NCBI GenBank assembly: GCA_016927935.1
Contig: JAFGLS010000239.1
Span: 4,390 to 68,389 of the forward strand
Source of the DNA: Syntrophaceae bacterium
Lineage (GTDB): Bacteria; Desulfobacterota; Syntrophia; Syntrophales; Smithellaceae
DNA: 64,000 nucleotides
Direction of reading: 5' to 3'
Positions 4,244 to 54,600 of this stretch are shown here, in pieces. Below the pieces are notes generated by a model. It had not been told where the DNA came from and did no database searches. It saw nothing but the letters and a program-made list of their open reading frames with translations. Every line of letters begins with the position of its first letter. Within the stretch, counting starts at the first letter, position 1. Both the position numbers and the translations under genes were made by a program.

Positions 4244-4318
4244 AAGCTCCCCTTTGGTTTATCCGGGGAAGCGGGAAGGGGAATCTCCCGCTTATCGTCT
4301 GGCCTGACTATCCCCGGT
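4244..4318 (-). promoter_or_regulatory. GC-rich structured 5' leader; a partially deleted copy is at 9723-9772
   Basis: CCGGGGA/TCCCCGG outer stem and AAGCGGGA/TCCCGCTT inner stem; the sequence is duplicated. Confidence 0.45.
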
Positions 4319-41866: not shown

Positions 41867-43552
41867 ATGATGTCTGCGGTTACTGAAGATATTTTGTCAA
41901 AAGAAAAAAATACGCGACGTATCTTTTATCTGACCATATCAAGAATTATCTTAGTAACAATTATTCTGACTATAACTGTTTATATTGATATAAGAAAAGA
42001 TTTATTTGCAATATCAGATATAATTCTCAGCTTTTTTTATATTATAGTTGCCATAATTTATTTGTTTTCAGTCATTTATGCTTTTCTTTATAAATTAAAA
42101 GTCAATTACAAGAAAAACATATATTTGCAGGTAACAGTAGATCTCATTATGGTTACCTTTCTTATATTAATGTTTGGAAACACGCAGATTGATTTTTCTC
42201 TTTTTTACACACTCATAATAGTTTATTCCACAATCTTTCTTGGTCGCAAGGGAAGTATATTTATCGCTTCGATTGCCAGTATATTATATGGTCTTTTTCT
42301 CAATATCGAAGTTTATAATTTAATGCCATCTTTTCCTATTGTTCACTATGATCGCAATCTCCATACCGCTGATGCCCTTACTAATCTTATAGTGCGTATC
42401 ACGTCTTTTTATTTTGTAGCTTTTTTGGCAAGTTTTATAGTGGAGCAGGAAAAGAAGACGGCATCCTTATTGGAAGAGAAAGAATCGGAATTTAATCAGT
42501 TGGATTTGCTTTTCCGCAGTATTGTTGAGTCGGTTTACACAGGAGTTATGACTGTTAATTTAAATAACATAATAAAGACTTTTAATAAAGCTGCGGAAGA
42601 GATTACCGGATTTTCACGTTTGAAAATCGAAAACAGAAAGATTGATGAATATTTTCCGGAGTTTCTGCCTTTTTTAAAAGAAGAAGTCATTGAAGAACAA
42701 AGTAAAACAAGAATAGAAATTGTAACGAAAGGAAAAAAAGGCAATAAGATTAATTTAGGATTGTCGATATCGCCTCTGAAAGGAAAAAGCGAAAATCAAA
42801 TCGGATATATTTTAATTTTTCAAGACATAACTCAAATCAAGCAAATGGAAAAGGCTCTCGAACAAAGCAGGCACATGGCACTGATTGGGGAAATGGCGTC
42901 CGGTTGGATTCATGAGGTAAGAAATCCGTTGGCTGCAATAACCGGTTCCGTAGAGCTTTTAAAAAAAGGATTAGCCCTGGAAGGTACTAATAAACGCCTT
43001 ATGGAAATAATTTTGCGCAGTAAAGACCAGATTGAAAATTTTACCCGCGATTTTTTATTACTGGCGCGTCCCGTTACAAAATCAAATGAATTGGTCGATA
43101 TGAAAAAAGTTGTTGAAGAGGTCATAGAACAAGTGAAATTTAATGAAGAGTGGACAGATGAAATAAAAATCGAAAAGGCGATTTCAGATAATGTTCAAGT
43201 CTATGCGAATAAAGAACATGTGTGGCAAATTATAAGCAACATTATTTTAAATTCCATTCAGGCTATGGAAAAAGGAGGAGTTTTGTCTGTTGCAACTCAA
43301 ACTATTAAAAAAGATGATGGAAACGAATATGCTGAAATAAAAATATCGGATACCGGATGCGGTATAAAGGAAGATGATTTTAATAAGATATTCGATCCAT
43401 TTTTCACAAACAAATCTAAAGGCATAGGATTGGGGTTGTCTATTGTTAACCATATTATTGATGGATATAAGGGAAAAATTAAAATAGAAAGCACGGTAAA
43501 TAGGGGAACAACTTGCCGGGTATGGTTCCCTGTAAAAAAAGAAGCAATGTAA
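41867..43552 (+). CDS. PilS-like membrane sensor histidine kinase
   Basis: Six TMs, PAS, HEVRNPL, HATPase domain. Confidence 0.88.
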   Translation: MMSAVTEDILSKEKNTRRIFYLTISRIILVTIILTITVYIDIRKDLFAISDIILSFFYIIVAIIYLFSVIYAFLYKLKVNYKKNIYLQVTVDLIMVTFLILMFGNTQIDFSLFYTLIIVYSTIFLGRKGSIFIASIASILYGLFLNIEVYNLMPSFPIVHYDRNLHTADALTNLIVRITSFYFVAFLASFIVEQEKKTASLLEEKESEFNQLDLLFRSIVESVYTGVMTVNLNNIIKTFNKAAEEITGFSRLKIENRKIDEYFPEFLPFLKEEVIEEQSKTRIEIVTKGKKGNKINLGLSISPLKGKSENQIGYILIFQDITQIKQMEKALEQSRHMALIGEMASGWIHEVRNPLAAITGSVELLKKGLALEGTNKRLMEIILRSKDQIENFTRDFLLLARPVTKSNELVDMKKVVEEVIEQVKFNEEWTDEIKIEKAISDNVQVYANKEHVWQIISNIILNSIQAMEKGGVLSVATQTIKKDDGNEYAEIKISDTGCGIKEDDFNKIFDPFFTNKSKGIGLGLSIVNHIIDGYKGKIKIESTVNRGTTCRVWFPVKKEAM

Positions 43553-43580: not shown

Positions 43581-44945
43581 ATGGCGAAAATTTTAGTCGT
43601 TGATGATGATCCGGGGGTAAGGGAACTGACGGAAATAATGCTTCAACAGGAAGGCCATAAGGTAAGCAGCGCATCAGAGCCTATTAAAGCGATTGACTTA
43701 TGCTGCAAGACAGATTTCGATTTGATTATCACAGACTTAAAAATGCCTAAAATGGATGGGATTGAATTTCTCAAAAAAATTAAAGACCAAAGACCGGAAG
43801 CAACAGTCATTCTTATAACGGCTTTTGCTTCTCCGGAAACAGCTTTAAGCGCCATGAAAGAAGATGCTTATGATTATGTGGAAAAAGGAAAGGATTGGCA
43901 GGATGAACTTAAAAAAATTGTGCGTTCAGCCCTCCAGAAAAAGGGGTTAGATGCAAATATTAATCCTGAAGAAGAAAATGGAGAAGTTTCGCCTTCGGTA
44001 AATGAATTTTGTGGAATGCTCAGCATAAACAGGGAAATGTTTAAGATATTCGAGACGATAAAAAAAGTTGCCGATACTTCGACAAATATTCTGATCTTGG
44101 GAGAAAGCGGAACAGGCAAAGAACTTGTGGCCAGAGCTATTCATGAAAATTCTTCACGTTCAAAGATGCCTTTCGTAGCCATCAACAGCGGTGGAATACC
44201 GGAGAATCTTCTGGAAAGCGAACTTTTCGGATATATGAAGGGTTCCTTTACCGGAGCTTACGCTGACAGACAAGGATTTTTTGAGATGGCGAAAGGAGGA
44301 ACAATATTTTTTGATGAAATAGGCGAATTGTCACCGTCTTTACAGGTCAAGCTCTTGAGGGTTGTGCAGGAAAAAACATTCCGGCGCATAGGTGGGGCGG
44401 AAGATATTAAGGTTGATGTACGAATAATTTCAGCGACAAATAAGAATTTGCAGGAAAGAGTGAAAAATGGAGAATTTCGTGAAGACCTTTATTACCGTTT
44501 GAATGTCATACCTATTTATATACCTCCATTGAGGGAGAGAAGAGAGGATATTCCTCTGCTTATAAACATTTTTATAGAAAAGTACTCGCAATTGCTGGAT
44601 AAGGAAATAAGAAATATTTCTTCTTACGCGATGGAATTATTGATGAATTATGATTTTCCGGGAAACATTCGCGAATTGCAAAATATTATTGAACGCGGTG
44701 TTGCCATGGAAAGTTCCAATATAATCCTTCCGGAGAGCTTGACAATCGGTATTCCCAAATTTGATATTGATATTTCTGACAGCGGAATAGATCTGAATGC
44801 TGAACTGGACAAAATCGAAAAATTGCTGATCGAAAAAGCTTTGCAGAAAACAAAAGGCTCAAAAAAGAAAGCGGCGGAGTTATTGAAGATTACTTTTGAT
44901 TCATTACGACACAGGATCGAAAAACTTGATATTGATAAGAATTAA
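43581..44945 (+). CDS. PilR-like sigma54-dependent response regulator
   Basis: REC domain, GESGTGKE, GSFTGA, FREDLYYRL, Fis-type HTH. Confidence 0.92.
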   Translation: MAKILVVDDDPGVRELTEIMLQQEGHKVSSASEPIKAIDLCCKTDFDLIITDLKMPKMDGIEFLKKIKDQRPEATVILITAFASPETALSAMKEDAYDYVEKGKDWQDELKKIVRSALQKKGLDANINPEEENGEVSPSVNEFCGMLSINREMFKIFETIKKVADTSTNILILGESGTGKELVARAIHENSSRSKMPFVAINSGGIPENLLESELFGYMKGSFTGAYADRQGFFEMAKGGTIFFDEIGELSPSLQVKLLRVVQEKTFRRIGGAEDIKVDVRIISATNKNLQERVKNGEFREDLYYRLNVIPIYIPPLRERREDIPLLINIFIEKYSQLLDKEIRNISSYAMELLMNYDFPGNIRELQNIIERGVAMESSNIILPESLTIGIPKFDIDISDSGIDLNAELDKIEKLLIEKALQKTKGSKKKAAELLKITFDSLRHRIEKLDIDKN

Positions 44946-45139
44946 TTAGACCCGGATTTCAGAAGTGCATAACCTAAATATCCTAAAGGGCACTATAGGG
45001 GCACTGAAGTTTTATAGCCAAATTATTTAGGCTGTTGGAAATTATCCCGCACAGCGGTATAATATATTCATAAGTTTCTTTTTACTTGACTTTTTGATGA
45101 TATTTACTCTATATGCATCTGACAAAAGGTAACAGGAAA

Positions 45140-45223
45140 ATGCTGGAAAATATTTCTTTAAAAAGGGCAGTATTCTTTTATTTTTTTAGTTTTATTAATA
45201 GGGTCTGCCAAAGAGATTCATGA
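45140..45223 (+). CDS. Putative Phe-rich attenuator leader peptide (27 aa)
   Basis: MLENISLKRAVFFYFFSFINRVCQRDS, with 5 Phe and 1 Tyr in 7 codons, ending 18 nt before a terminator. Confidence 0.7.
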   Translation: MLENISLKRAVFFYFFSFINRVCQRDS

Positions 45224-45276
45224 CCATTAACAGGGGAAATGAACCGTGGGCAGATAAAATCCCACGGTTTTTTTTT
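45203..45276 (+). promoter_or_regulatory. Transcription attenuator (antiterminator and terminator)
   Basis: Terminator AACCGTGGG/CCCACGGTT plus T9; GTCTGCC (45203-45209) can pair with GGCAGAT (45249-45255). Confidence 0.75.
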
Positions 45277-45332
45277 GCCACTGAGATGGCATTTTAAAAT
45301 TAAAAATAAATAAAAAGGGGAGGAAAATTCAA

Positions 45333-46541
45333 ATGAAAAGTAAAATTTTGATTTTAATTTTGTCAGTTGTTTTTTTGATGGGGGGAACGGGCAGTTTACA
45401 AGCCAAAACTATCAAGGTTGGAGCTGCTATTAATCTTACAGGCCCTGCGTCAACATGGGGGCAGTTTCATGAAAAAGGTCAACGTGATTATTTCCGTTAT
45501 GTGAATGAAGTAAAGGGTGGTGTTTATGGCAACAAGATTAAAATGATTACTGTTGATACAGCCTACAAAGTGCCCGAAGCAATTGCCGCTGTGAAAAAAT
45601 TTGTTTTACAGGATAATGTTGATATTATCGCAACGTGGAGTGCGGGTGAAGGTTTAGCTGCCAAACCAATAATTCAGGAATATAAAGTGCCGACTATCAA
45701 TTATTCAACCAGTTGGGAAATTTTGGAGAAGCCGGTCGATTATATATATCTTCCTTTCGGAAGTTACAAAATGGATTGTCACGCCATATTGGAATATATT
45801 AAAGCTATTCATAAAGGCAAGGAAGCCCCCAAAGTTGGTCTTTTAACATACAACAACGCTTATGGTCGTTCTATTCATGCTCCGAGCAAAGAATACGCTA
45901 AGCAACTTGGCATAAATCTGGTGGCAGTAGAAGAATTTCCAGCTAAAACAGTTGATCTAAACACGGAACTTCTTCGTCTGCAAAAAGCCGGCGCCGAATA
46001 TGTATTTATGCAGATGCTGCCTTCTGCTATAATTACCGCTTTTAAAAGCGCTGATCGTATAAATTACACCCCGGTTTTTCTGGGAACATGGACATCAACT
46101 GATCCTGATTTTTTCAAAATGGGCAAAGGCTTGATTCGCGACCGCCTGATTATGCAATTTCCAGGCGGATTGCCTTCAGATAAAGATTCCAGTGGCATCA
46201 AAGTGATGCAGGAATTGTGGAAAAGATACAAGACAGTCAATTCTTTTGATGCTTCTTACTGGGAAGGTGTTGTTGTCGGCATGATTATGGAACGCGCCTT
46301 CAAGCGTGCCTATGAAATGAGTAAGAATAAAAATATTAATCCGCAAACTGTAAATGCCGCGCTGGAATCATTCAAAAATGAAGATTTCGGCGGTTTGGTG
46401 CCTTCAATAACATATACTAAAGACGATCATGGAGCGTCTTTCACCGCGCGAATGGTTAAGGTTAAAGAAGATGGGACTTATATTCCACTAACGAATTTCT
46501 ATATTCCAGGTAAAGACAAAATAAAATTATTGAATATGTAG
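45333..46541 (+). CDS. ABC transporter substrate-binding protein (LivK/HAAT family)
   Basis: Signal peptide; IKVG...LTGP...G...N..GGV.G type I PBP pattern. Confidence 0.92.
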   Translation: MKSKILILILSVVFLMGGTGSLQAKTIKVGAAINLTGPASTWGQFHEKGQRDYFRYVNEVKGGVYGNKIKMITVDTAYKVPEAIAAVKKFVLQDNVDIIATWSAGEGLAAKPIIQEYKVPTINYSTSWEILEKPVDYIYLPFGSYKMDCHAILEYIKAIHKGKEAPKVGLLTYNNAYGRSIHAPSKEYAKQLGINLVAVEEFPAKTVDLNTELLRLQKAGAEYVFMQMLPSAIITAFKSADRINYTPVFLGTWTSTDPDFFKMGKGLIRDRLIMQFPGGLPSDKDSSGIKVMQELWKRYKTVNSFDASYWEGVVVGMIMERAFKRAYEMSKNKNINPQTVNAALESFKNEDFGGLVPSITYTKDDHGASFTARMVKVKEDGTYIPLTNFYIPGKDKIKLLNM

Positions 46542-46551
46542 AGGCATGTAA

Positions 46552-46673
46552 ACCCCGTTAGAAAGTGTTCAACCTTCCAACGGGTAGGCGAACAAGGGGT
46601 ATTACTCTTCCGTGTTCTCTGAAAAAGGAAGACTCATTATAACGCTGCTTACAGCGGGGCTTTCTAACGGGGT
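46552..46673. mobile_element. MITE-like element with 14-bp terminal inverted repeats
   Basis: ACCCCGTTAGAAAG ... CTTTCTAACGGGGT, non-coding, intergenic. Confidence 0.7.
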
Positions 46674-46701
46674 AAAGTCAAGATATTATGAAGAGGTTTT
46701 G

Positions 46702-47529
46702 ATGAAGGCTTTTCGCAGCCGGCCCTCCATCATGATTAACCGGCGGGATGAAGATAAAAAAGCTGAGCTGGAAATTTGTAATTTAAGATTAAGTTTTGGC
46801 GGAGTTGTTGCCGTAAAGGATGTTGACCTCGAGGTTCATACCGGCGAGTTGATGGCCATTATCGGCCCGAACGGAGCGGGCAAAACGAGTCTTCTTAATT
46901 GTATAACAGGTTTTTACAGGGCTCAGCAGGGTAAAATAACATTCAACGGAAAAGACATAACAAATTTGCCTACCCATGAACTGGTCGGTGTGGGTATCGG
47001 AAGAACATTTCAGAACATAGAGTTGTTCCCGGGCATGACTGTTCTGGCTAATATGACACTGGCCAGGCACATCCATTGCCAATACAGTTTTATCAAGTCC
47101 TTCTTTTTTTCCGGTTCCGTCAGGGAAGAAGAAATTCGTCACCGACAGATTCTTGAAGAAATAATAGATTTTCTGGAAATGCAGTCCATCAGAAAAAAGA
47201 CCGTTGGCTCGCTGCCGTACGGGATGATGAAAAGAGTGGAATTTGGCCGGGCCCTGGCTCTGGAGCCCAGGCTGATGATTCTGGACGAGCCCTTTGCCGG
47301 AATGAATATGGAAGAAAAGGAGGATATGGTTCGCTTTCTGCTGGAACTTAATCAAAGATGGGGGCTCACGATAATTCTGGTCGAGCATGATATGTCCGTT
47401 GTTATGAGTATTTCCCAGAGAATAATGGTTTTGAATTTCGGAGAAAAAATAACAGAGGGTGCTGCTGAAGAGATTAGCGTTAATCCTGAAGTAATCAAGG
47501 CTTATTTGGGAGAAGCTGAAGCATTATAA
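46702..47529 (+). CDS. ABC transporter ATP-binding protein (LivG-like)
   Basis: GPNGAGKT, RTFQN, LDEP, EHDM, AYLG; start placed after the MITE. Confidence 0.92.
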   Translation: MKAFRSRPSIMINRRDEDKKAELEICNLRLSFGGVVAVKDVDLEVHTGELMAIIGPNGAGKTSLLNCITGFYRAQQGKITFNGKDITNLPTHELVGVGIGRTFQNIELFPGMTVLANMTLARHIHCQYSFIKSFFFSGSVREEEIRHRQILEEIIDFLEMQSIRKKTVGSLPYGMMKRVEFGRALALEPRLMILDEPFAGMNMEEKEDMVRFLLELNQRWGLTIILVEHDMSVVMSISQRIMVLNFGEKITEGAAEEISVNPEVIKAYLGEAEAL

Positions 47530-47544
47530 ATAAGGCGTTACATT

Positions 47545-49458
47545 TTGTATAAAGAAAATAGAAATAATATAACACTGCCTCAGTTGTTAATCGAAAATGC
47601 CGCTCTGTACGGTAATAGAAAAACGGCTATACGAGAAAAGGCATACGGCATATGGCAGAAATATAGTTGGGATGATTACTGCCGTTATGTGCGGAAAACG
47701 GCGGCAGGTTTTGCCTCGCTGAATCTTAAGCGTGGCGATAATGTCTGTATGATTGTTCATAATCATCCGGAGTGGCTTTTTGCGGAACTGGCAGCGCATG
47801 CCCTAGGCGCGACAACTCTTAATTTGTTTACCTCCTCTATTGCCGATGAACTGGCTTTTTCCATTAAACGTATTAATTCTCCCGTGGTTGTCGTTCAGGA
47901 TCAAGAACAGGTTGATAAACTTCTGGAGGCTAGAGAAAAGCTGTCCCAGACAAAAAAAGTTGTCTATATTGACCCGACAGGTATGACTTCATACGGTAAC
48001 GAGCCATGGCTGATCAGTTATGCCGAACTGCTTGAGATAGGCGAAAAATTTTTAAAAGAACATCCCGATTATATAGATGAAGAAATAAATAAAGGCCGTC
48101 CTGAAGATACCGCTGTCATGATTCAGACATCAGGAACAACCGGCGTTCCAAAACTGGCCATGTTATCGCACCGTAATCTTATTAATATGGCGGTACAATG
48201 GCTGGAGGAAACAAAAATAGAACCGGAAGAAAACTGGCTGTCCATGTCCCCTCCGGCGTGGATTGTTGATCAGATGTGGGGAATGGGAGTTGCTTTGAAA
48301 AGCGCTATGGTGATGAATTTTCCGGAAACAGCAGAAACTGTTCTGGAGGACTTCCGGGACATAGGTCCTTCAATGATTATTACCGCTTCACGTTTTTGGG
48401 AGGATATGGCCTCCCGCATACGCGTAAAAATATCCGATGCCGGCTGGGTGAAAAAGAAACTTTTTTATCTGGGTGAGAAAATCGGCAAATCCGTTGTAGA
48501 AAAGCAATCGAATAAACAGCCCATTCCGTTATTCCAGAGGGCTTTATATAAAACAATGTCCGTGTCCGTTTACAAGCCGCTTTTGGACCGAATAGGATGT
48601 GCTCATTTTCGCAGTGCCTTTACCGGAGGGCATCCTATCAGCCCCGATGTAATCCTTTTTTTCCGGGCTATCGGCCTTAATCTGAAGCAATGTTATGGAC
48701 TGACTGAGGCATGCGGTATATTTCAAATACAACCGGATGACAAGGTCAAACTGGAAACTGTCGGCAAACCTCTGCCGCTCACTGAAGTGACCATAGCTGA
48801 GGATCAGGAAGTGCTGGTTAAATCCGAGTCTAATTTTTACGGATACTATGACGATTATCAGTCAACTCAGAACGCATTTGAAAAAGGATGGCTGAAAACA
48901 GGCGATGCGGGGTACATTGACAGCGACGGGCATTTGCTCATAATCGGTCGTAAGGAAGATATTATCCGCAATAAAAGCGGCGAGGCTTTTTCACCCGACT
49001 TTATTGAAACACGTCTTAAATTTAGCCCGTATATTAAGGAAGCGGTTACTTTCGGCGAAGCTCGCCCTTACATTACCGCTATGATTAATATTGATATGGG
49101 TAATGTCGGCAACTGGGCTGAGGAAAGAATGATTCCATACACGACTTACATGGATTTGTCCCAACAATCGGCGGTGGAGGAATTGATTTTAAAGGAAATT
49201 ATCAGGGTCAACGAACAGCTTCCCGAAGTAATGAAAATTAAGAAATTTGTTCTTCTTTATAAACTTCTTGACGCGGATGATGAAGAACTGACACGCACGG
49301 GCAAGGTACGCCGCCGATTTGTTTACGGCTTATATATAAAGATTATTGAAGGGATGTACAGCGACCAGAAGAATATTGAGGTTACCGGTAAAGTCAAGTA
49401 CCGCGACGGAAGGGTAGGCGAAATAGAAACAACTATCAATATTATCAATGTGAGCTAA
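47545..49458 (+). CDS. Long-chain acyl-CoA synthetase-like AMP-binding protein
   Basis: TSGTTGVPK, YGLTE, TGDAG, ELTRTGKVRR motifs. Confidence 0.92.
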   Translation: MYKENRNNITLPQLLIENAALYGNRKTAIREKAYGIWQKYSWDDYCRYVRKTAAGFASLNLKRGDNVCMIVHNHPEWLFAELAAHALGATTLNLFTSSIADELAFSIKRINSPVVVVQDQEQVDKLLEAREKLSQTKKVVYIDPTGMTSYGNEPWLISYAELLEIGEKFLKEHPDYIDEEINKGRPEDTAVMIQTSGTTGVPKLAMLSHRNLINMAVQWLEETKIEPEENWLSMSPPAWIVDQMWGMGVALKSAMVMNFPETAETVLEDFRDIGPSMIITASRFWEDMASRIRVKISDAGWVKKKLFYLGEKIGKSVVEKQSNKQPIPLFQRALYKTMSVSVYKPLLDRIGCAHFRSAFTGGHPISPDVILFFRAIGLNLKQCYGLTEACGIFQIQPDDKVKLETVGKPLPLTEVTIAEDQEVLVKSESNFYGYYDDYQSTQNAFEKGWLKTGDAGYIDSDGHLLIIGRKEDIIRNKSGEAFSPDFIETRLKFSPYIKEAVTFGEARPYITAMINIDMGNVGNWAEERMIPYTTYMDLSQQSAVEELILKEIIRVNEQLPEVMKIKKFVLLYKLLDADDEELTRTGKVRRRFVYGLYIKIIEGMYSDQKNIEVTGKVKYRDGRVGEIETTINIINVS

Positions 49459-49481
49459 TAATGGTCTCATAAATTGCATTG

Positions 49482-49569
49482 GTCATGCCGGCGAAGGCCG
49501 GCATCCAGAAATAATTTAAACTGGTTCCCGGCCTTCGTAACCTGAAGGTCATCTACGACCGGAGAAGAC
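49482..49569. repeat. REP-like inverted pair
   Basis: GTCATGCCGGCGAAGGCCGGCATCCAG ... CTGGTTCCCGGCCTTCG...GAC. Confidence 0.65.
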
Positions 49570-49590
49570 GACTGACAAAGGAAATGATAC

Positions 49591-50469
49591 ATGGAATTTT
49601 TTCTGCAATTATTGGTTAACGGTGTTTGTGTGGGGGTGCTCTACGGCATTTCCGCGATGGGTTTTGTCATGATTTTTAAATCATCAAGCGTTTTAAATTT
49701 TGCTCACGGGGAACTTCTGGCGTTGGGGGCATTCTTTTTCCTTTCGCTGGTGACTTGGGCGCAACTGCCGGTTTATGTCGCTTTTGTTCTGACCATGATC
49801 GGCTGTTTTATTCTTGGTTTTCTCATCGAGAGATTTTTCCTGCGTCCGTTAATCGGTGAAAAACTTATCTTTGTCATCATGCTTACAGTGGGATTAGCGG
49901 CAATGTTCAAAGGAATGATTCTGCTGATCTGGGGCGGGAATCTGCATACCTATCCGGAATTCCTGCCGCAGACAATGGGAATACAATTCGGTCCCATCTA
50001 TGTGGCGCCCGTCTATTCGGCCACGTTGATTATCAGTGTTATTTTTCTTGTGCTTTTTGGGTTGTTTTTCAAAAAATCCGCGCAGGGCATTTATATGCGC
50101 TCCGTTGCCGATAATCAAAAAGCAGCTCTTTCTCTGGGAGTTCATGTACGGCGCGTGTTTGCTCTTTCCTGGGCTATTGCCGCGCTTGTTGCCTGCATGA
50201 GCGGTATTGTTCTGGGAATTATTAATGGAGTCAATGTTCATGATTTGAGCTCTATCGGGCTGAAGGTGTTTCCGGTAGTTATTTTAGGAGGTCTGGACAG
50301 CGTCGGCGGCGCGATTATCGGCGGGATTATCATTGGACTTCTGGAGACATTCACAGGAGGTTATCTGTCACCGTCATTACGGGATGTTGTACCCTATATT
50401 GTTTTAGTATTTATTTTAATGGTCAAGCCTTATGGTTTATTCGGCCTGGTGGAAATTGAAAGGGTTTAG
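49591..50469 (+). CDS. ABC transporter permease (LivH-like)
   Basis: LNFAHG, VILGG.DS, KPYGLFG motifs. Confidence 0.93.
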   Translation: MEFFLQLLVNGVCVGVLYGISAMGFVMIFKSSSVLNFAHGELLALGAFFFLSLVTWAQLPVYVAFVLTMIGCFILGFLIERFFLRPLIGEKLIFVIMLTVGLAAMFKGMILLIWGGNLHTYPEFLPQTMGIQFGPIYVAPVYSATLIISVIFLVLFGLFFKKSAQGIYMRSVADNQKAALSLGVHVRRVFALSWAIAALVACMSGIVLGIINGVNVHDLSSIGLKVFPVVILGGLDSVGGAIIGGIIIGLLETFTGGYLSPSLRDVVPYIVLVFILMVKPYGLFGLVEIERV

Positions 50470-50479
50470 ATAAACAAAA

Positions 50480-51550
50480 ATGAGAAAATTTACTTTTCAC
50501 CCCTGCGGTAATTACCGGGAGAATTATGAGCAGGAATTAAATATTTTCGAGACTGATTTCGGCAGATTATCGCTTTGTGTTTTTCTGGCATTGCTTTTCC
50601 TTGTGACTCCATTTGTTTTCAGCTCTTACATGCTCTACATTGTCAATACAATAGGCATCGCGGCGATTGCCGCCATCGGCTTGAATATTCTTATCGGTTA
50701 CACAGGCCAGATTTCTTTGGGGCATGGAGCTTTCTTTGGTGTGGGCGCTTACGCAGCGGCCGTTCTTGCGACAAGACTTGATGTTGGTTTTTACATTGCC
50801 ATTCCTGCTGCCGGAATCATTACCGCGCTTGTCGGCATGATTTTCGGCATTCCATCGGGCAGATTAAAGGGACTATATCTGACAATCGCGACTCTGGCCG
50901 GACAATTTATTATTGAATACGTTTTAATTCAGTGGGAGAGCCTCACCAAAGGCACAATGGGTATTACTTTACCTTCACCGGAAATTTTTGGCTGGAAGAT
51001 ATCCGGAGATAAAGCTTTCTTCTTTCTGATTTTTATCAGCCTTGTCTGCATGACGTGGTTTGCGGTAAATATCATCCGCAGTAAGTACGGTCGGGCTTTT
51101 ATCGCTATTCGTGACAATGACCGTGCCGCTGAAGGGATGGGAATTCCGATTTTTAAATACAAACTATTGTCCTTTGGCATCAGTTCATTTTATGCCGGTT
51201 TTGCCGGAGCTCTCTGGGCTTATTACATGGTCAGCATCACGACGGAACCTTTCAATCTCGGACTTTCTGTTGAATATATTGCCATGGTTATTATAGGCGG
51301 AATGGGTAATATTCCGGGAGCTATTTTGGGGGCAACATTCATTACACTGCTCAACGAGTTGCTGAGATTTGTAACGGGCATATTAATGAATGTTCCCGCG
51401 ATTGCCGGCTGGGGATTGAATATGGCACCGCTGAGGGAATTTGTTTTTGGTCTGGCGATTGTTCTATTTATTTTGATTGAGCCGAAGGGACTTGCGGAAA
51501 TATGGCGAATTATCCGTTCGAGTTTCCGGCTTTGGCCGTTCTCGTATTAG
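50480..51550 (+). CDS. ABC transporter permease (LivM-like)
   Basis: GYTGQISLGH.AF, YL.IATL, AIRDN, EPKGL motifs. Confidence 0.93.
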   Translation: MRKFTFHPCGNYRENYEQELNIFETDFGRLSLCVFLALLFLVTPFVFSSYMLYIVNTIGIAAIAAIGLNILIGYTGQISLGHGAFFGVGAYAAAVLATRLDVGFYIAIPAAGIITALVGMIFGIPSGRLKGLYLTIATLAGQFIIEYVLIQWESLTKGTMGITLPSPEIFGWKISGDKAFFFLIFISLVCMTWFAVNIIRSKYGRAFIAIRDNDRAAEGMGIPIFKYKLLSFGISSFYAGFAGALWAYYMVSITTEPFNLGLSVEYIAMVIIGGMGNIPGAILGATFITLLNELLRFVTGILMNVPAIAGWGLNMAPLREFVFGLAIVLFILIEPKGLAEIWRIIRSSFRLWPFSY

Positions 51551-51658
51551 AAAATCTTGCTATTTGCTGAAAGCAAATGCTTAGATTTTCTTATCCCGCA
51601 AAGCGAAGCAACGCGGGGTTAGAAAATTAGAAGGTGTTTCAAGAAACTCATAAAAACA

Positions 51659-51751
51659 TGTCATTTCGAAGCGAAAGCGAGAAATCTTTATATTTTTTAA
51701 AATAAGATATCTCCCCAGTATAGCTGGACTATAGCCGTGGTCGATATGACA
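51659..51751. repeat. REP-like inverted pair
   Basis: TGTCATTTCGA..GAGAAATCT ... AGATATCTC..TCGATATGACA. Confidence 0.65.
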
Positions 51752-51773
51752 AAACTAGATATTAGGACAAGAA

Positions 51774-52574
51774 ATGGGTGACATACTCTTACATTTAAAT
51801 AATATATCTGTTGTTTATTCAGATGTTATACAAGTTCTTAAAGGTGTTTCTTTAAGTGTAGAGAAGGGTCATATCGTGTCTCTTTTAGGCAGTAACGGTG
51901 CCGGAAAAACAACCACGCTTAAAGCTATATCAGGATTACTCAAACCGGAAAACGGAAAAGTAATCGAGGGAACAATTATTTACAACGGCGTCAATATCCA
52001 GAATCAGGCGCCGGAATTTATTACTCGTCAAGGCATTATTCAGGTTCTGGAAGGCAGGCAGCCATTCAAATACCTTACTGTTGAAGAAAACCTTCGTGTG
52101 GGCACAGCTACAAGATTCGGCAAACCCTATAAACAAGATTTAGAGCTTGTATATAATTATTTTCCCGCGCTATTGAAAAGAAGAAAAGCTCTTGCAGGAT
52201 ATTGTAGCGGAGGTGAATTGCAGATGCTGGTTATAGGCCGTGCATTAATGGCGCATCCTCAACTTCTGTTGCTTGATGAACCTTCGCTTGGTCTGGCGCC
52301 GCTGGTTGTGCAGGAAATATTCCGCATCATCAGAAAGATTAATGAAGAACATGCAACGACGATTGTTCTAGTTGAGCAAAACGCTCGGATGGCGTTACAG
52401 GTTGCCCATTACGGCTATGTCATGGAAAACGGCAAAATAATGATGGAAGGCACGTCCAAAGAATTATCCGATAATCCGGACATCAAAGAATTTTATTTAG
52501 GTATGGCAGCATCGGGTGAGGTAAAGTCATACAAAGATGTGAAATCGTATCGACGCCGCAAGCGCTGGCTGTAA
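51774..52574 (+). CDS. ABC transporter ATP-binding protein (LivF-like)
   Basis: GSNGAGKTT, SGGELQML, DEPSLGLAP, EQNA motifs. Confidence 0.93.
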   Translation: MGDILLHLNNISVVYSDVIQVLKGVSLSVEKGHIVSLLGSNGAGKTTTLKAISGLLKPENGKVIEGTIIYNGVNIQNQAPEFITRQGIIQVLEGRQPFKYLTVEENLRVGTATRFGKPYKQDLELVYNYFPALLKRRKALAGYCSGGELQMLVIGRALMAHPQLLLLDEPSLGLAPLVVQEIFRIIRKINEEHATTIVLVEQNARMALQVAHYGYVMENGKIMMEGTSKELSDNPDIKEFYLGMAASGEVKSYKDVKSYRRRKRWL

Positions 52575-52704: not shown

Positions 52705-53169
52705 ATGGACCTTTTGAAAGAACTGAAAAAACTAATTCAGAAAATGGATAAGGCTGGAATAGATTACGCTTTATGCGGGGGATTGGCTATCGCCATTTAT
52801 GCCAAGCCCCGTGCGACTCTTGATATTGATATTATGGTGCAGCCGAATGATTTTCAAGAAACAAAAAAAGCAGTGAAAGAACTTGGCTATACGATGGCTT
52901 CTGCGATAATGGAATTTAATGATGGCACCGTCAAGCTTCAACGATTAAGCAAAGTCGATAAAGTGACCGGTGAATATTTTATTTTGGATTTACTTATTGT
53001 AACCCCTGAAATAAAAAAAGCTTGGGAGGATCGCGCCACAATAGAATGGGAAGGATGCCCTCTCAAGGTAGTATCTCCAGAAGGTCTGATTTTACTGAAA
53101 TCTCTACGCAACAGCGGTCAGGACAAGGACGATATTGAATATCTGAGGAGTCTGGAAAATGAAGATTGA
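52705..53169 (+). CDS. Nucleotidyltransferase-superfamily protein (AbiEii/MenT-like)
   Basis: YAL.GGLA...PRATLDIDI...LILLK....QD..DI motif. Confidence 0.8.
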   Translation: MDLLKELKKLIQKMDKAGIDYALCGGLAIAIYAKPRATLDIDIMVQPNDFQETKKAVKELGYTMASAIMEFNDGTVKLQRLSKVDKVTGEYFILDLLIVTPEIKKAWEDRATIEWEGCPLKVVSPEGLILLKSLRNSGQDKDDIEYLRSLENED

Positions 53170-53346: not shown

Positions 53347-54600
53347 ATGATTAACTTATTTGATAAAAAAGAATCGTGGGGGAAGAGAAAAAGAAAAAGC
53401 CAGCAGGATAAGGCGCTGGTGGAAATGGTGAAGCTTGGTTATGAGAAGTCAGCGCGAGTCAAGCAAATGCTTGATGATGCCGGTATCAATCCTGGAGAAA
53501 TTAAATCGAGGGAAGATTTGGAGTGTCTGCCGGTTACGTCGCGGGAAAAATTAGTGGATATGGAAATGCAACAGCCGCCTTATGCCGGTTTGGAAAATCC
53601 GGATGTTGTAATTGATAGAATTTTTACTTCTCCCGGTCCGGTTTATGAGCCGCATTTATCAGAAACTGATTATTTATGGGCGAGGGCTTTTTTTGCCGCG
53701 GGTATCGGTCCGAAAGATGTGGCGCTAAATGCTTTTTTATATCATCTAGTTGCTGCCGGACTTACTTTCCATAATGGCTTACGCAGGGTCGGTGCTACGG
53801 TTGTTCCTTCTGGAACTTCGTCATCACAGGTACAGGTTCAGTTAATCAAAGATTTGAAGGTTACCGCTTATGTCGGCACACCAAGCTTTTTGAAATCAAT
53901 AATTGATAAATCAAAAGAATTGGGGTTCGATTTTAAGAAAGATTTTCTGGTGAAGAAAGCCTGCTTTGCCGCCGAGCCGCTTTTGCCGGATTTGCGCCGT
54001 TCTTTTGAAAAGGATTACGGCATTGATACTTATCAGATGTACGGAGCGACGGAAGTTGGAGATGTCGCCTATGAATGCTCACAAAAAAAAGGATGGCATA
54101 TCTGCGAAGAAACGATAGTAGAAATCGTTGATCCGGCAACAGGGAAAAATGTTCCCGAAGGAGAAATGGGTGAAGTTGTGGTTACCAGACTTAACGATAT
54201 TTTCTTTTTACTGCGTTTTGGTACCGGAGATTTATCTCGTATAATTACGGAAACCTGTCCCTGTGGACGCACATCATACCGTTTGGCAGGAATTGCGGGC
54301 AGGGTAGGGGAAGCCATAAAAGTCCGCGGTTTATTTATTGCTCCCAGCCAGATCAAAATGTTTCAGGCAAAATTCAATAATCTTCCGCTTCAGGCCGTTG
54401 TCAGCCGCACCGGTCATGAAGATGTTTTGAAATTGCGAATTGAAAAAATATCGCCCGAAATTGGCAGTGCTTCCTGGGAAGAAAATTTCAAGAAAGTATT
54501 CCGTGAAATCTGCACAGTGGGAATAAATAACGTGGAATATCTTAATGCAGGTGAAATCAAACCTGAGGAGAAACTGATTGTTGATCAAAGGGGGTACTAG
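53347..54600 (+). CDS. Phenylacetate--CoA ligase family protein
   Basis: TSPGP, YVGTPS, YGATE, RFGTGDLS, CPCGRT motifs. Confidence 0.85.
   Translation: MINLFDKKESWGKRKRKSQQDKALVEMVKLGYEKSARVKQMLDDAGINPGEIKSREDLECLPVTSREKLVDMEMQQPPYAGLENPDVVIDRIFTSPGPVYEPHLSETDYLWARAFFAAGIGPKDVALNAFLYHLVAAGLTFHNGLRRVGATVVPSGTSSSQVQVQLIKDLKVTAYVGTPSFLKSIIDKSKELGFDFKKDFLVKKACFAAEPLLPDLRRSFEKDYGIDTYQMYGATEVGDVAYECSQKKGWHICEETIVEIVDPATGKNVPEGEMGEVVVTRLNDIFFLLRFGTGDLSRIITETCPCGRTSYRLAGIAGRVGEAIKVRGLFIAPSQIKMFQAKFNNLPLQAVVSRTGHEDVLKLRIEKISPEIGSASWEENFKKVFREICTVGINNVEYLNAGEIKPEEKLIVDQRGY

Follow-up and report, generated by a model that had tools for sequence, protein, structure and literature searches.

What signal would control an ATP-binding cassette (ABC) importer operon that homology alone would label 'branched-chain amino acid transport'? 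The question is raised by a 64,000-nucleotide stretch of DNA from a Syntrophaceae bacterium (assembly GCA_016927935.1, contig JAFGLS010000239.1, positions 4,390 to 68,389 of the forward strand), hereafter called the window. Here an operon for a Liv-type ABC importer and two coenzyme A (CoA) ligases is preceded by a short open reading frame (ORF) with a run of phenylalanine (Phe) codons and by an intrinsic terminator, T1. Judging from the sequence, we put at roughly 0.85 the probability that this leader is a ribosome-mediated (leader-peptide) transcription attenuator sensing charged tRNA-Phe, and it would most likely switch on the transporter and CoA-ligase operon when phenylalanine is short.

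The leader is compact and consists of a promoter, a Shine-Dalgarno-like motif, a 27-codon ORF and segments of mutual complementarity, followed by T1 (Table 1). An earlier note, made from the letters of this DNA alone, had pointed to a TTGACT promoter-like box at about 45086, to a 27-codon ORF containing FFYFFSF and to a strong terminator at 45242-45276, and we located each of them at these places, the terminator with its stem and nine-T run. It had further proposed that GTCTGCC, which lies inside the ORF past the Phe run, pairs with GGCAGAT, and that the latter overlaps the 5' arm and loop of the terminator. Specifically, GTCTGCC (45203-45209) and GGCAGAT (45249-45255) form seven pairs, one of them G-U, and GGCAGAT begins within the 5' arm (45242-45250) and runs on into the loop; the TTCAT/ATGAA inner helix that would extend this pairing is present as described. 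Region 2 begins 8 nucleotides (nt) past the last Phe codon, and the stop codon of the ORF begins 11 nt past region 2. Additionally, a segment that was absent from the earlier note, region 1 (GGGCAG), is a near-copy of region 3 and therefore also pairs with region 2, which completes a layout of alternative 1:2, 2:3 and 3:4 pairings. The sequence-level hallmarks of the pheL/pheM-type geometry that had been claimed, namely the ORF, the codon run, T1 and mutually exclusive pairings, are thus found together.

When both strands of the 64-kb window were searched for ATG-initiated ORFs of 10-45 codons, the leader frame was the only one with at least five Phe in seven residues (the small-ORF search counted it twice, owing to two nested ATG starts). 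The fold of the leader was also more stable than that of shuffled sequences, with a z value of -2.97. The small ORF at 45140-45223 should be annotated as a leader peptide.

Table 1 Positions of the leader elements and of the neighbouring genes in the window
Feature	Position	Strand	Remarks
-35 box TTGACT	45086..45091	+	T-rich stretch just 5'
-10 box TATATG	45110..45115	+	18-nt spacer from TTGACT
Shine-Dalgarno-like AAAAGGT	45124..45130	+	before the leader ORF; AAGAGGT in relatives
Leader ORF	45140..45223	+	27 codons, MLENISLKRAVFFYFFSFINRVCQRDS, stop TGA at 45221
Region 1, GGGCAG	45165..45170	+	complementary to region 2; ends 2 nt 5' of the first Phe codon
Regulatory codons	45173..45193	+	TTC TTT TAT TTT TTT AGT TTT, FFYFFSF; 5 Phe and 1 Tyr in 7
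Region 2, GGTCTGCC	45202..45209	+	within the ORF; partner is region 1 or region 3
Inner helix	45217..45243	+	TTCAT 45217-45221 / ATGAA 45239-45243; lengthens the antiterminator and overlaps the first 2 bases of the T1 5' arm
Region 3, GGGCAGAT	45248..45255	+	partner is region 2 (antiterminator), or region 4 (terminator) via the first three G
Intrinsic terminator T1	45242..45276	+	9-bp stem 45242-45250 / 45261-45269, 10-nt loop, nine T
Weak second hairpin	45276..45295	+	TGCCA/TGGCA, then TTTT; site of a strong second terminator in distant relatives
Periplasmic binding protein (Peripla_BP_6)	45333..46541	+	first structural gene; E 5e-52
LivG-like ATPase, 637-aa AMP-binding ligase, two permeases, LivF-like ATPase	46612..52574	+	rest of the importer operon
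PaaK-family (phenylacetate-CoA-ligase-like) gene	53347..54600	+	417 aa; 209 bits against the PaaK cut-off of 700
PilS-like/PAS histidine kinase	41867-43552		upstream of the leader
AtoC/NtrC-type sigma-54 response regulator	43581-44945		directly upstream of the leader

From this layout we infer where the ribosome would stall, in which direction the operon would be regulated and how it would respond to Phe. Transcription would start near 45121 from the sigma-70-type promoter formed by the boxes at 45086 and 45110, and the leader would be translated at once. When Phe is plentiful, the ribosome would reach the TGA at 45221 and cover region 2. When the stop codon occupies the A site, the distance back to region 2 is 12-19 nt, which is inside the usual ribosome footprint. 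Once the ribosome has gone, region 2 would pair with region 1, so that in either case region 3 would stay free, T1 would form and transcription would end about 155 nt from the start. When charged tRNA-Phe is scarce, the ribosome would stall at the first Phe codons (from 45173) and mask region 1, leaving free region 2, which lies about 29 nt downstream. Region 2 would then pair with region 3 (GGCAGAT), with the TTCAT/ATGAA helix in addition, before the 3' arm of T1 is made; T1 would be blocked, and the polymerase would go on to transcribe the operon from the binding-protein gene onwards. In the absence of translation, the 1:2 hairpin and T1 would both be expected to form.

The conservation of the leader was followed through orthologous operons. 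The binding protein has relatives in assemblies of Smithella and of other Syntrophales; of 162 that were confirmed, the best 80 loci were kept. Within 600 nt upstream of the orthologous binding-protein gene, 72 of the 80 loci have a small ORF with at least four Phe in nine residues, and among the eight without one, the upstream sequence was too short in four. The motif GGTCTGCC followed within 80 nt by GGGCAGA, allowing at most one mismatch in each, was likewise found in 72 of the 80 loci; one of these matches is spurious (spacing 4), and the spacing is 30-42 nt in the remaining 71. After removal of three loci with short upstream sequence (L041, L065 and L067) and of the spurious one (L056), 68 related Syntrophales loci and the window made up a set of 69 leaders.

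In all 69 leaders the ORF is in frame through the Phe run and GTC TGC C, with 3-8 Phe codons each (median 6), so that the Phe codons that the earlier note had proposed to look for in relatives are conserved. The Phe codons vary synonymously (349 TTT and 76 TTC), the N-termini and the length of the peptides are not conserved, and the stop codon begins 2, 11 or 17 nt past region 2 in 12, 55 and 2 leaders, respectively. GTCTGCC itself shows little or no variation, even at third codon positions. Since TTT and TTC alternate whereas GTCTGCC does not change, the Phe run appears to be constrained as codons and region 2 as RNA.

The pairings were then read from an alignment of the 69 leaders (A1; 68 distinct sequences). 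T1 is paired in 95.2% of the cells of this alignment, compared with 31-47% for versions slid by 1-3 columns, and the 2:3 antiterminator in 95.0%, compared with 22-51% when slid. T1 shows compensatory changes at three pairs, in 41 cells, for example U-A to C-G in seven sequences. The TCAT/ATGA inner helix is kept in Smithella-like loci. The duplex of region 1 with region 2 has an energy of -11.9 kcal/mol in the window, where 2 of 200 shuffles were as good, and a median of -13.7 kcal/mol over the 69 leaders; in 50 of them, no more than 10 of 200 mononucleotide shuffles were as good, and GGCAG lies inside the best-pairing upstream segment in 45. Folding of both conformers, a check that the earlier note had put forward, gave -17.7 kcal/mol for the antiterminator with its inner helix (fold of 45198-45259, both helices) and -13.6 to -13.9 kcal/mol for T1 alone. 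The 1:2 hairpin of the window has -11.4 kcal/mol, and the unconstrained minimum-free-energy fold of 45121-45278 consists of this hairpin and T1.

In 32 of the 61 relatives scored (L027-L080), T1 is succeeded by a second, strong hairpin that resembles a terminator and has a T-run; the same is visible in eight more relatives that the search pattern had dropped. The 5' arm of this second hairpin, GGCCGTGG, can pair with the T1 3' arm at a median energy of -13.7 kcal/mol, and 19 of the 32 beat 95% of shuffles. In these relatives, a single antitermination decision could thereby act on both terminators. Within the window's own clade no hairpin reached the thresholds used for a second terminator, and only the weak TGCCA/TGGCA hairpin is found there.

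The direction of the response is supported by other members of the same RNA family. We built a covariance model of the leader, R1, which scores the window leader at 115 bits. Of 151 genomes sampled across the order, 135 have a match (56 of 62 genera), as do 47 of 151 in a sample of the phylum. A second full-length match in the window's own genome lies on contig C36 (28358-28510, minus strand; 39 bits, E 9e-6; loci L083 and L090); an exact pattern search of this genome returned the window leader only, and the sister copy came to light only with the covariance model. This copy has its own TTGAC box, a 30-codon ORF MDRKLNVNINFYGYWFYTYFTSVCPSLKED with mixed Phe, Tyr and Trp codons and, in common with the window leader, the AGTCTGCCC segment; its terminator is accompanied by a second hairpin with a T-run. 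The copy stands before ten genes, encoding in order an HMGL-type aldolase-like protein, DAHP synthase, aroB, chorismate mutase/prephenate dehydratase (pheA), aroD-aroE, aroA, shikimate kinase (aroK), chorismate synthase (aroC) and prephenate dehydrogenase (tyrA). Because a biosynthetic operon must be induced by starvation and the scaffold is shared, the logic of the window element would likewise be read-through upon starvation.

Among the R1 matches inspected in other genomes, mixed Phe/Tyr/Trp leaders precede DAHP synthase (L147, L149, L150 and L151), a DeoC-type aldolase (L121, L122, L123 and L125), shikimate kinase (L127, and L120 by N-terminal sequence only) and, in one case, a binding protein (L148). 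Phe-rich leaders precede a binding protein (L124), shikimate kinase (L126; six Phe and one Trp) and, in five other Syntrophales genomes (L142-L146), a stand-alone acyl-CoA ligase of about 516 amino acids. These ligases were assigned by NCBIfam scan (L142 and L144), by Pfam (L145 and L146) or, with no ORF called, by the same N-terminus (L143). One RNA scaffold is re-used with different codon content, either Phe only or a mixture of Phe, Tyr and Trp.

The leader might instead act as a sensor of the nascent peptide or of translation in general, as the TnaC, erm and bmr leaders do, with no specificity for tRNA-Phe charging. Its C-terminal ..VCL..S-stop, or ..VCP-stop in relatives, would then arrest the ribosome on free Phe, on another ligand or when translation is slowed. 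The conservation of V-C-L/P after the Phe run would suit such a sensor, as would the 12 of 69 leaders that end two bases past region 2, ten with V-C-P-stop and two with V-C-L-stop; moreover, the CoA-ligase operon could be catabolic, in which case induction by an abundant substrate would fit. However, the conservation of V-C-L/P extends to the nucleotides, even at synonymous positions, and the segment coincides with region 2, while the number of Phe codons (3-8) and the spacers vary. Ahead of genes for aromatic biosynthesis, the same RNA core also comes with Tyr, Trp or mixed leaders, and there only starvation sensing would be sensible. We therefore consider a sensor of this kind improbable and favour attenuation by tRNA-Phe charging.

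In a further alternative, T1 would merely end an independent short transcript or that of the upstream two-component genes, and the operon would have its own promoter 3' of T1, perhaps served by the neighbouring sigma-54 activator. A gene for a sigma-54-type regulator, together with that of the histidine kinase, indeed adjoins the leader in 21 of the 80 loci, but the 59 loci without the regulator keep the leader. T1 and the ATG at 45333 are a mere 56 nt apart, an interval in which the scan listed no promoter-like site; by eye, no conserved GG-N10-GC box, for which no tool search was made, was seen in 22 intergenic regions. A separate operon promoter is accordingly very improbable. Hardly more credible is the notion that the ORF is a real gene for a small hydrophobic protein with its own terminator, such as an accessory subunit of the transporter, and that the complementarities are incidental. 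In its favour, the peptide is hydrophobic, with a core that is kept throughout the order. Its N-terminus and length, however, are not conserved, and the core amounts to little beyond Phe codons in varying number. Region 2 is under constraint as RNA, and all three mutually exclusive pairings are kept. Moreover, sister elements encode quite different aromatic peptides before biosynthetic genes, and a terminator between an accessory gene and the operon would uncouple the two.

The leader promoter itself is widely kept: all 67 related loci with sufficient upstream sequence have TTGAC, in most of them 115-121 nt 5' of region 2, and CTCTATAT around the -10 box is conserved in Smithella-like loci. 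Two other promoter candidates lie in the intergenic region of the window. A scanner-listed TTGGAA-17-TATAAT site at 45035-45063 was rejected as main promoter, as it falls in a variable insert and most relatives lack it; the one GG-N10-GC match of the window, read by eye at 45035-45051, falls in the same insert and is not conserved. This insert (44946-45070, from the regulator gene to the leader promoter) contains palindromic pieces, including ATCCCGCACAGCGG near 45046-45059 and an inverted repeat ATTTCAG...CTGAAGT. Similar pieces, sometimes in several copies, occur in the longer intergenic regions of L010, L016 and L017 and are absent from L001-L008. The insert looks like a repetitive extragenic palindromic (REP) element or a miniature inverted-repeat transposable element (MITE).

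Several points weigh against attenuation by tRNA-Phe charging. The -10 box TATATG is imperfect, and the consensus scanner listed neither the leader promoter, whose -10 box ends in G, nor T1, whose 10-nt loop exceeds the limit of 8. The covarying stems proposed as a check by the earlier note were found for T1 and failed to appear for the 2:3 helix, which is almost invariant and has one-sided wobble changes only; pairs altered on both sides were no more frequent than in shuffles (183 of 500), and the covariation measures did not exceed those of shuffles; owing to this near-invariance, complementarity and position support the helix, and covariation does not. The proposed folding of both conformers also came out against the antiterminator at equilibrium, since 45198-45278 folds into T1 (-23.5 versus -17.7 kcal/mol, with pairs of the U-run counted). 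Read-through would therefore have to be a kinetic, co-transcriptional choice. In addition, the 2:3 helix overlaps the T1 stem by only two bases, and by two more via the inner helix. For the leaders of the relatives, a Shine-Dalgarno heuristic served to choose the start codons, of which some may be wrong, and the loci share ancestry, so that counts across loci or sampled genomes are not independent. Finally, the genome encodes its own Phe pathway (pheA), and together with the two CoA ligases this makes the physiological sense of Phe control not self-evident. Since the genome makes its own Phe, the operon would serve as a supplement and not as the sole source of Phe.

The importer is of the same superfamily as LivJHMGF by sequence comparison, with all scores below the equivalog cut-offs: 56 bits against 477 for the binding protein, 255 against 362 for the LivG-like, 115 against 379 for the LivH-like, 135 against 366 for the LivM-like and 217 against 441 for the LivF-like protein. 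The PaaK-family gene is probably the last gene of the operon and stayed under both PaaK cut-offs (209 bits against 700 and 179 against 646), which makes it a family relative only. Ten further genomes of the order were compared: in all ten, the position of the large ligase is taken by an ORF of 642-681 amino acids, judged by size only, and in seven an AMP-binding ORF of 414-449 amino acids comes after the LivF-like gene, five abutting it and two behind small inserted ORFs.

The space between the LivF-like and PaaK-family genes holds, in the window, an ORF for a 154-amino-acid nucleotidyltransferase-like protein (NTP_transf_5 / DUF6036; 52705-53169). The same arrangement of LivF-like, nucleotidyltransferase and PaaK genes occurs in L128, and other genomes have an HNH endonuclease insert (L129), other small inserts or none. 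Far from the operon, at 4250-4318 on the minus strand of the window, the Rfam int-alpA RNA (RF02996) gave a match of 37.9 bits, above the gathering score, which may mark an integrated element near the start of the window.

The operon would import phenylalanine or an aryl-acid precursor of it. Amino-acid import, one of two readings, would follow from the closest solved relative of the binding protein, 3lkb (E 5e-31), which is annotated as a probable branched-chain amino-acid binding protein. In the other, the Phe-only attenuators would constitute a phenylalanine-salvage regulon, in which an aryl acid is imported, activated with CoA, reductively carboxylated and made into Phe. A route from aryl acids to Phe is known from older literature. 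Specifically, upon Phe shortage an aryl acid such as phenylacetate would enter via the Liv-type ABC system and be activated by the two CoA ligases of the operon or, elsewhere in Syntrophales, by the separately attenuated acyl-CoA ligase; an indolepyruvate-type ferredoxin oxidoreductase would convert the CoA ester to phenylpyruvate, from which Phe would be made. Salvage is suggested by the two CoA ligases in or at the operon and the Phe-only leaders before stand-alone ligases, and by the alpha subunit of indolepyruvate:ferredoxin oxidoreductase (IOR) in the same genome (722 bits, above the curated cut-off). It is also suggested by Rhodopseudomonas palustris, where most binding proteins of the same COG bound aromatic, fatty or dicarboxylic acids and not Leu, Ile or Val (PMC3223731). 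We hold this salvage route to be possible though rather doubtful; if it were true, the attenuator would reveal what a widespread and so far uncharacterised class of ABC-plus-ligase operons does. The codon content of the leader ties the ABC-importer and CoA-ligase operon of these syntrophic anaerobes to phenylalanine supply.

The leader matches no RNA family in Rfam. An Rfam cmscan of 44800-45500 with E up to 10 returned seven chance-level matches and no leader family, and Phe_leader, the enterobacterial pheL RNA, which we take to be RF01859, was not among them; at Rfam gathering thresholds the leader gave no relevant match, including to riboswitch and T-box models. Attenuators and T-boxes are known to place uptake genes under the same tRNA-charging signal as biosynthesis, and Vitreschak and colleagues reportedly predicted in 2004 amino-acid attenuators before amino-acid transporter genes. 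To our knowledge, there is no Phe-codon leader on a Liv-type ABC operon, and our literature searches found none. No prior description of the element was found in the full-text literature, a search that left subscription journals, such as that of the 2004 proteobacterial attenuator survey, outside its reach. Likewise, the passages of PMC2965389 returned by term look-ups do not report it, and look-ups in PMC545781 and PMC4833913 gave no hits. The leader represents an order-wide and apparently undescribed regulatory RNA family, one of probable leader-peptide attenuators for aromatic amino acids with a common RNA core, in a phylum where classical attenuation is little documented.

Among known systems, the enterobacterial pheL-pheA and pheM-pheST leaders are the nearest in design, as they likewise combine a short ORF with Phe codons, alternative 1:2, 2:3 and 3:4 hairpins and an intrinsic terminator. 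In both, starvation for charged tRNA-Phe leads to read-through. The window element has no sequence or structure homology with them and belongs to a different phylum (Thermodesulfobacteriota, Syntrophales). Its target would be an ABC importer and two CoA-ligase genes, whereas pheL and pheM control a biosynthetic enzyme and a tRNA synthetase, and its RNA core (GGTCTGCC / CCGTGGGCAGA) is, unlike that of pheL or pheM, common to sister attenuators of the aro operon. The trpL and hisL leaders follow the same ribosome-position logic with other amino acids and other sequences. The six segments and two terminators of the element's distant relatives recall the multi-stem his leader, although these relatives carry two complete terminators in tandem and trpL and hisL only one. 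In Bacillus subtilis, bmrCD is also an ABC transporter operon controlled by a leader ORF and a terminator (PMC4191407), but it encodes an exporter and answers to antibiotic-slowed translation, not to one amino acid. Together, the proposed mechanism is ordinary textbook attenuation, and it is the RNA family, the taxon and the regulated operon that are new.

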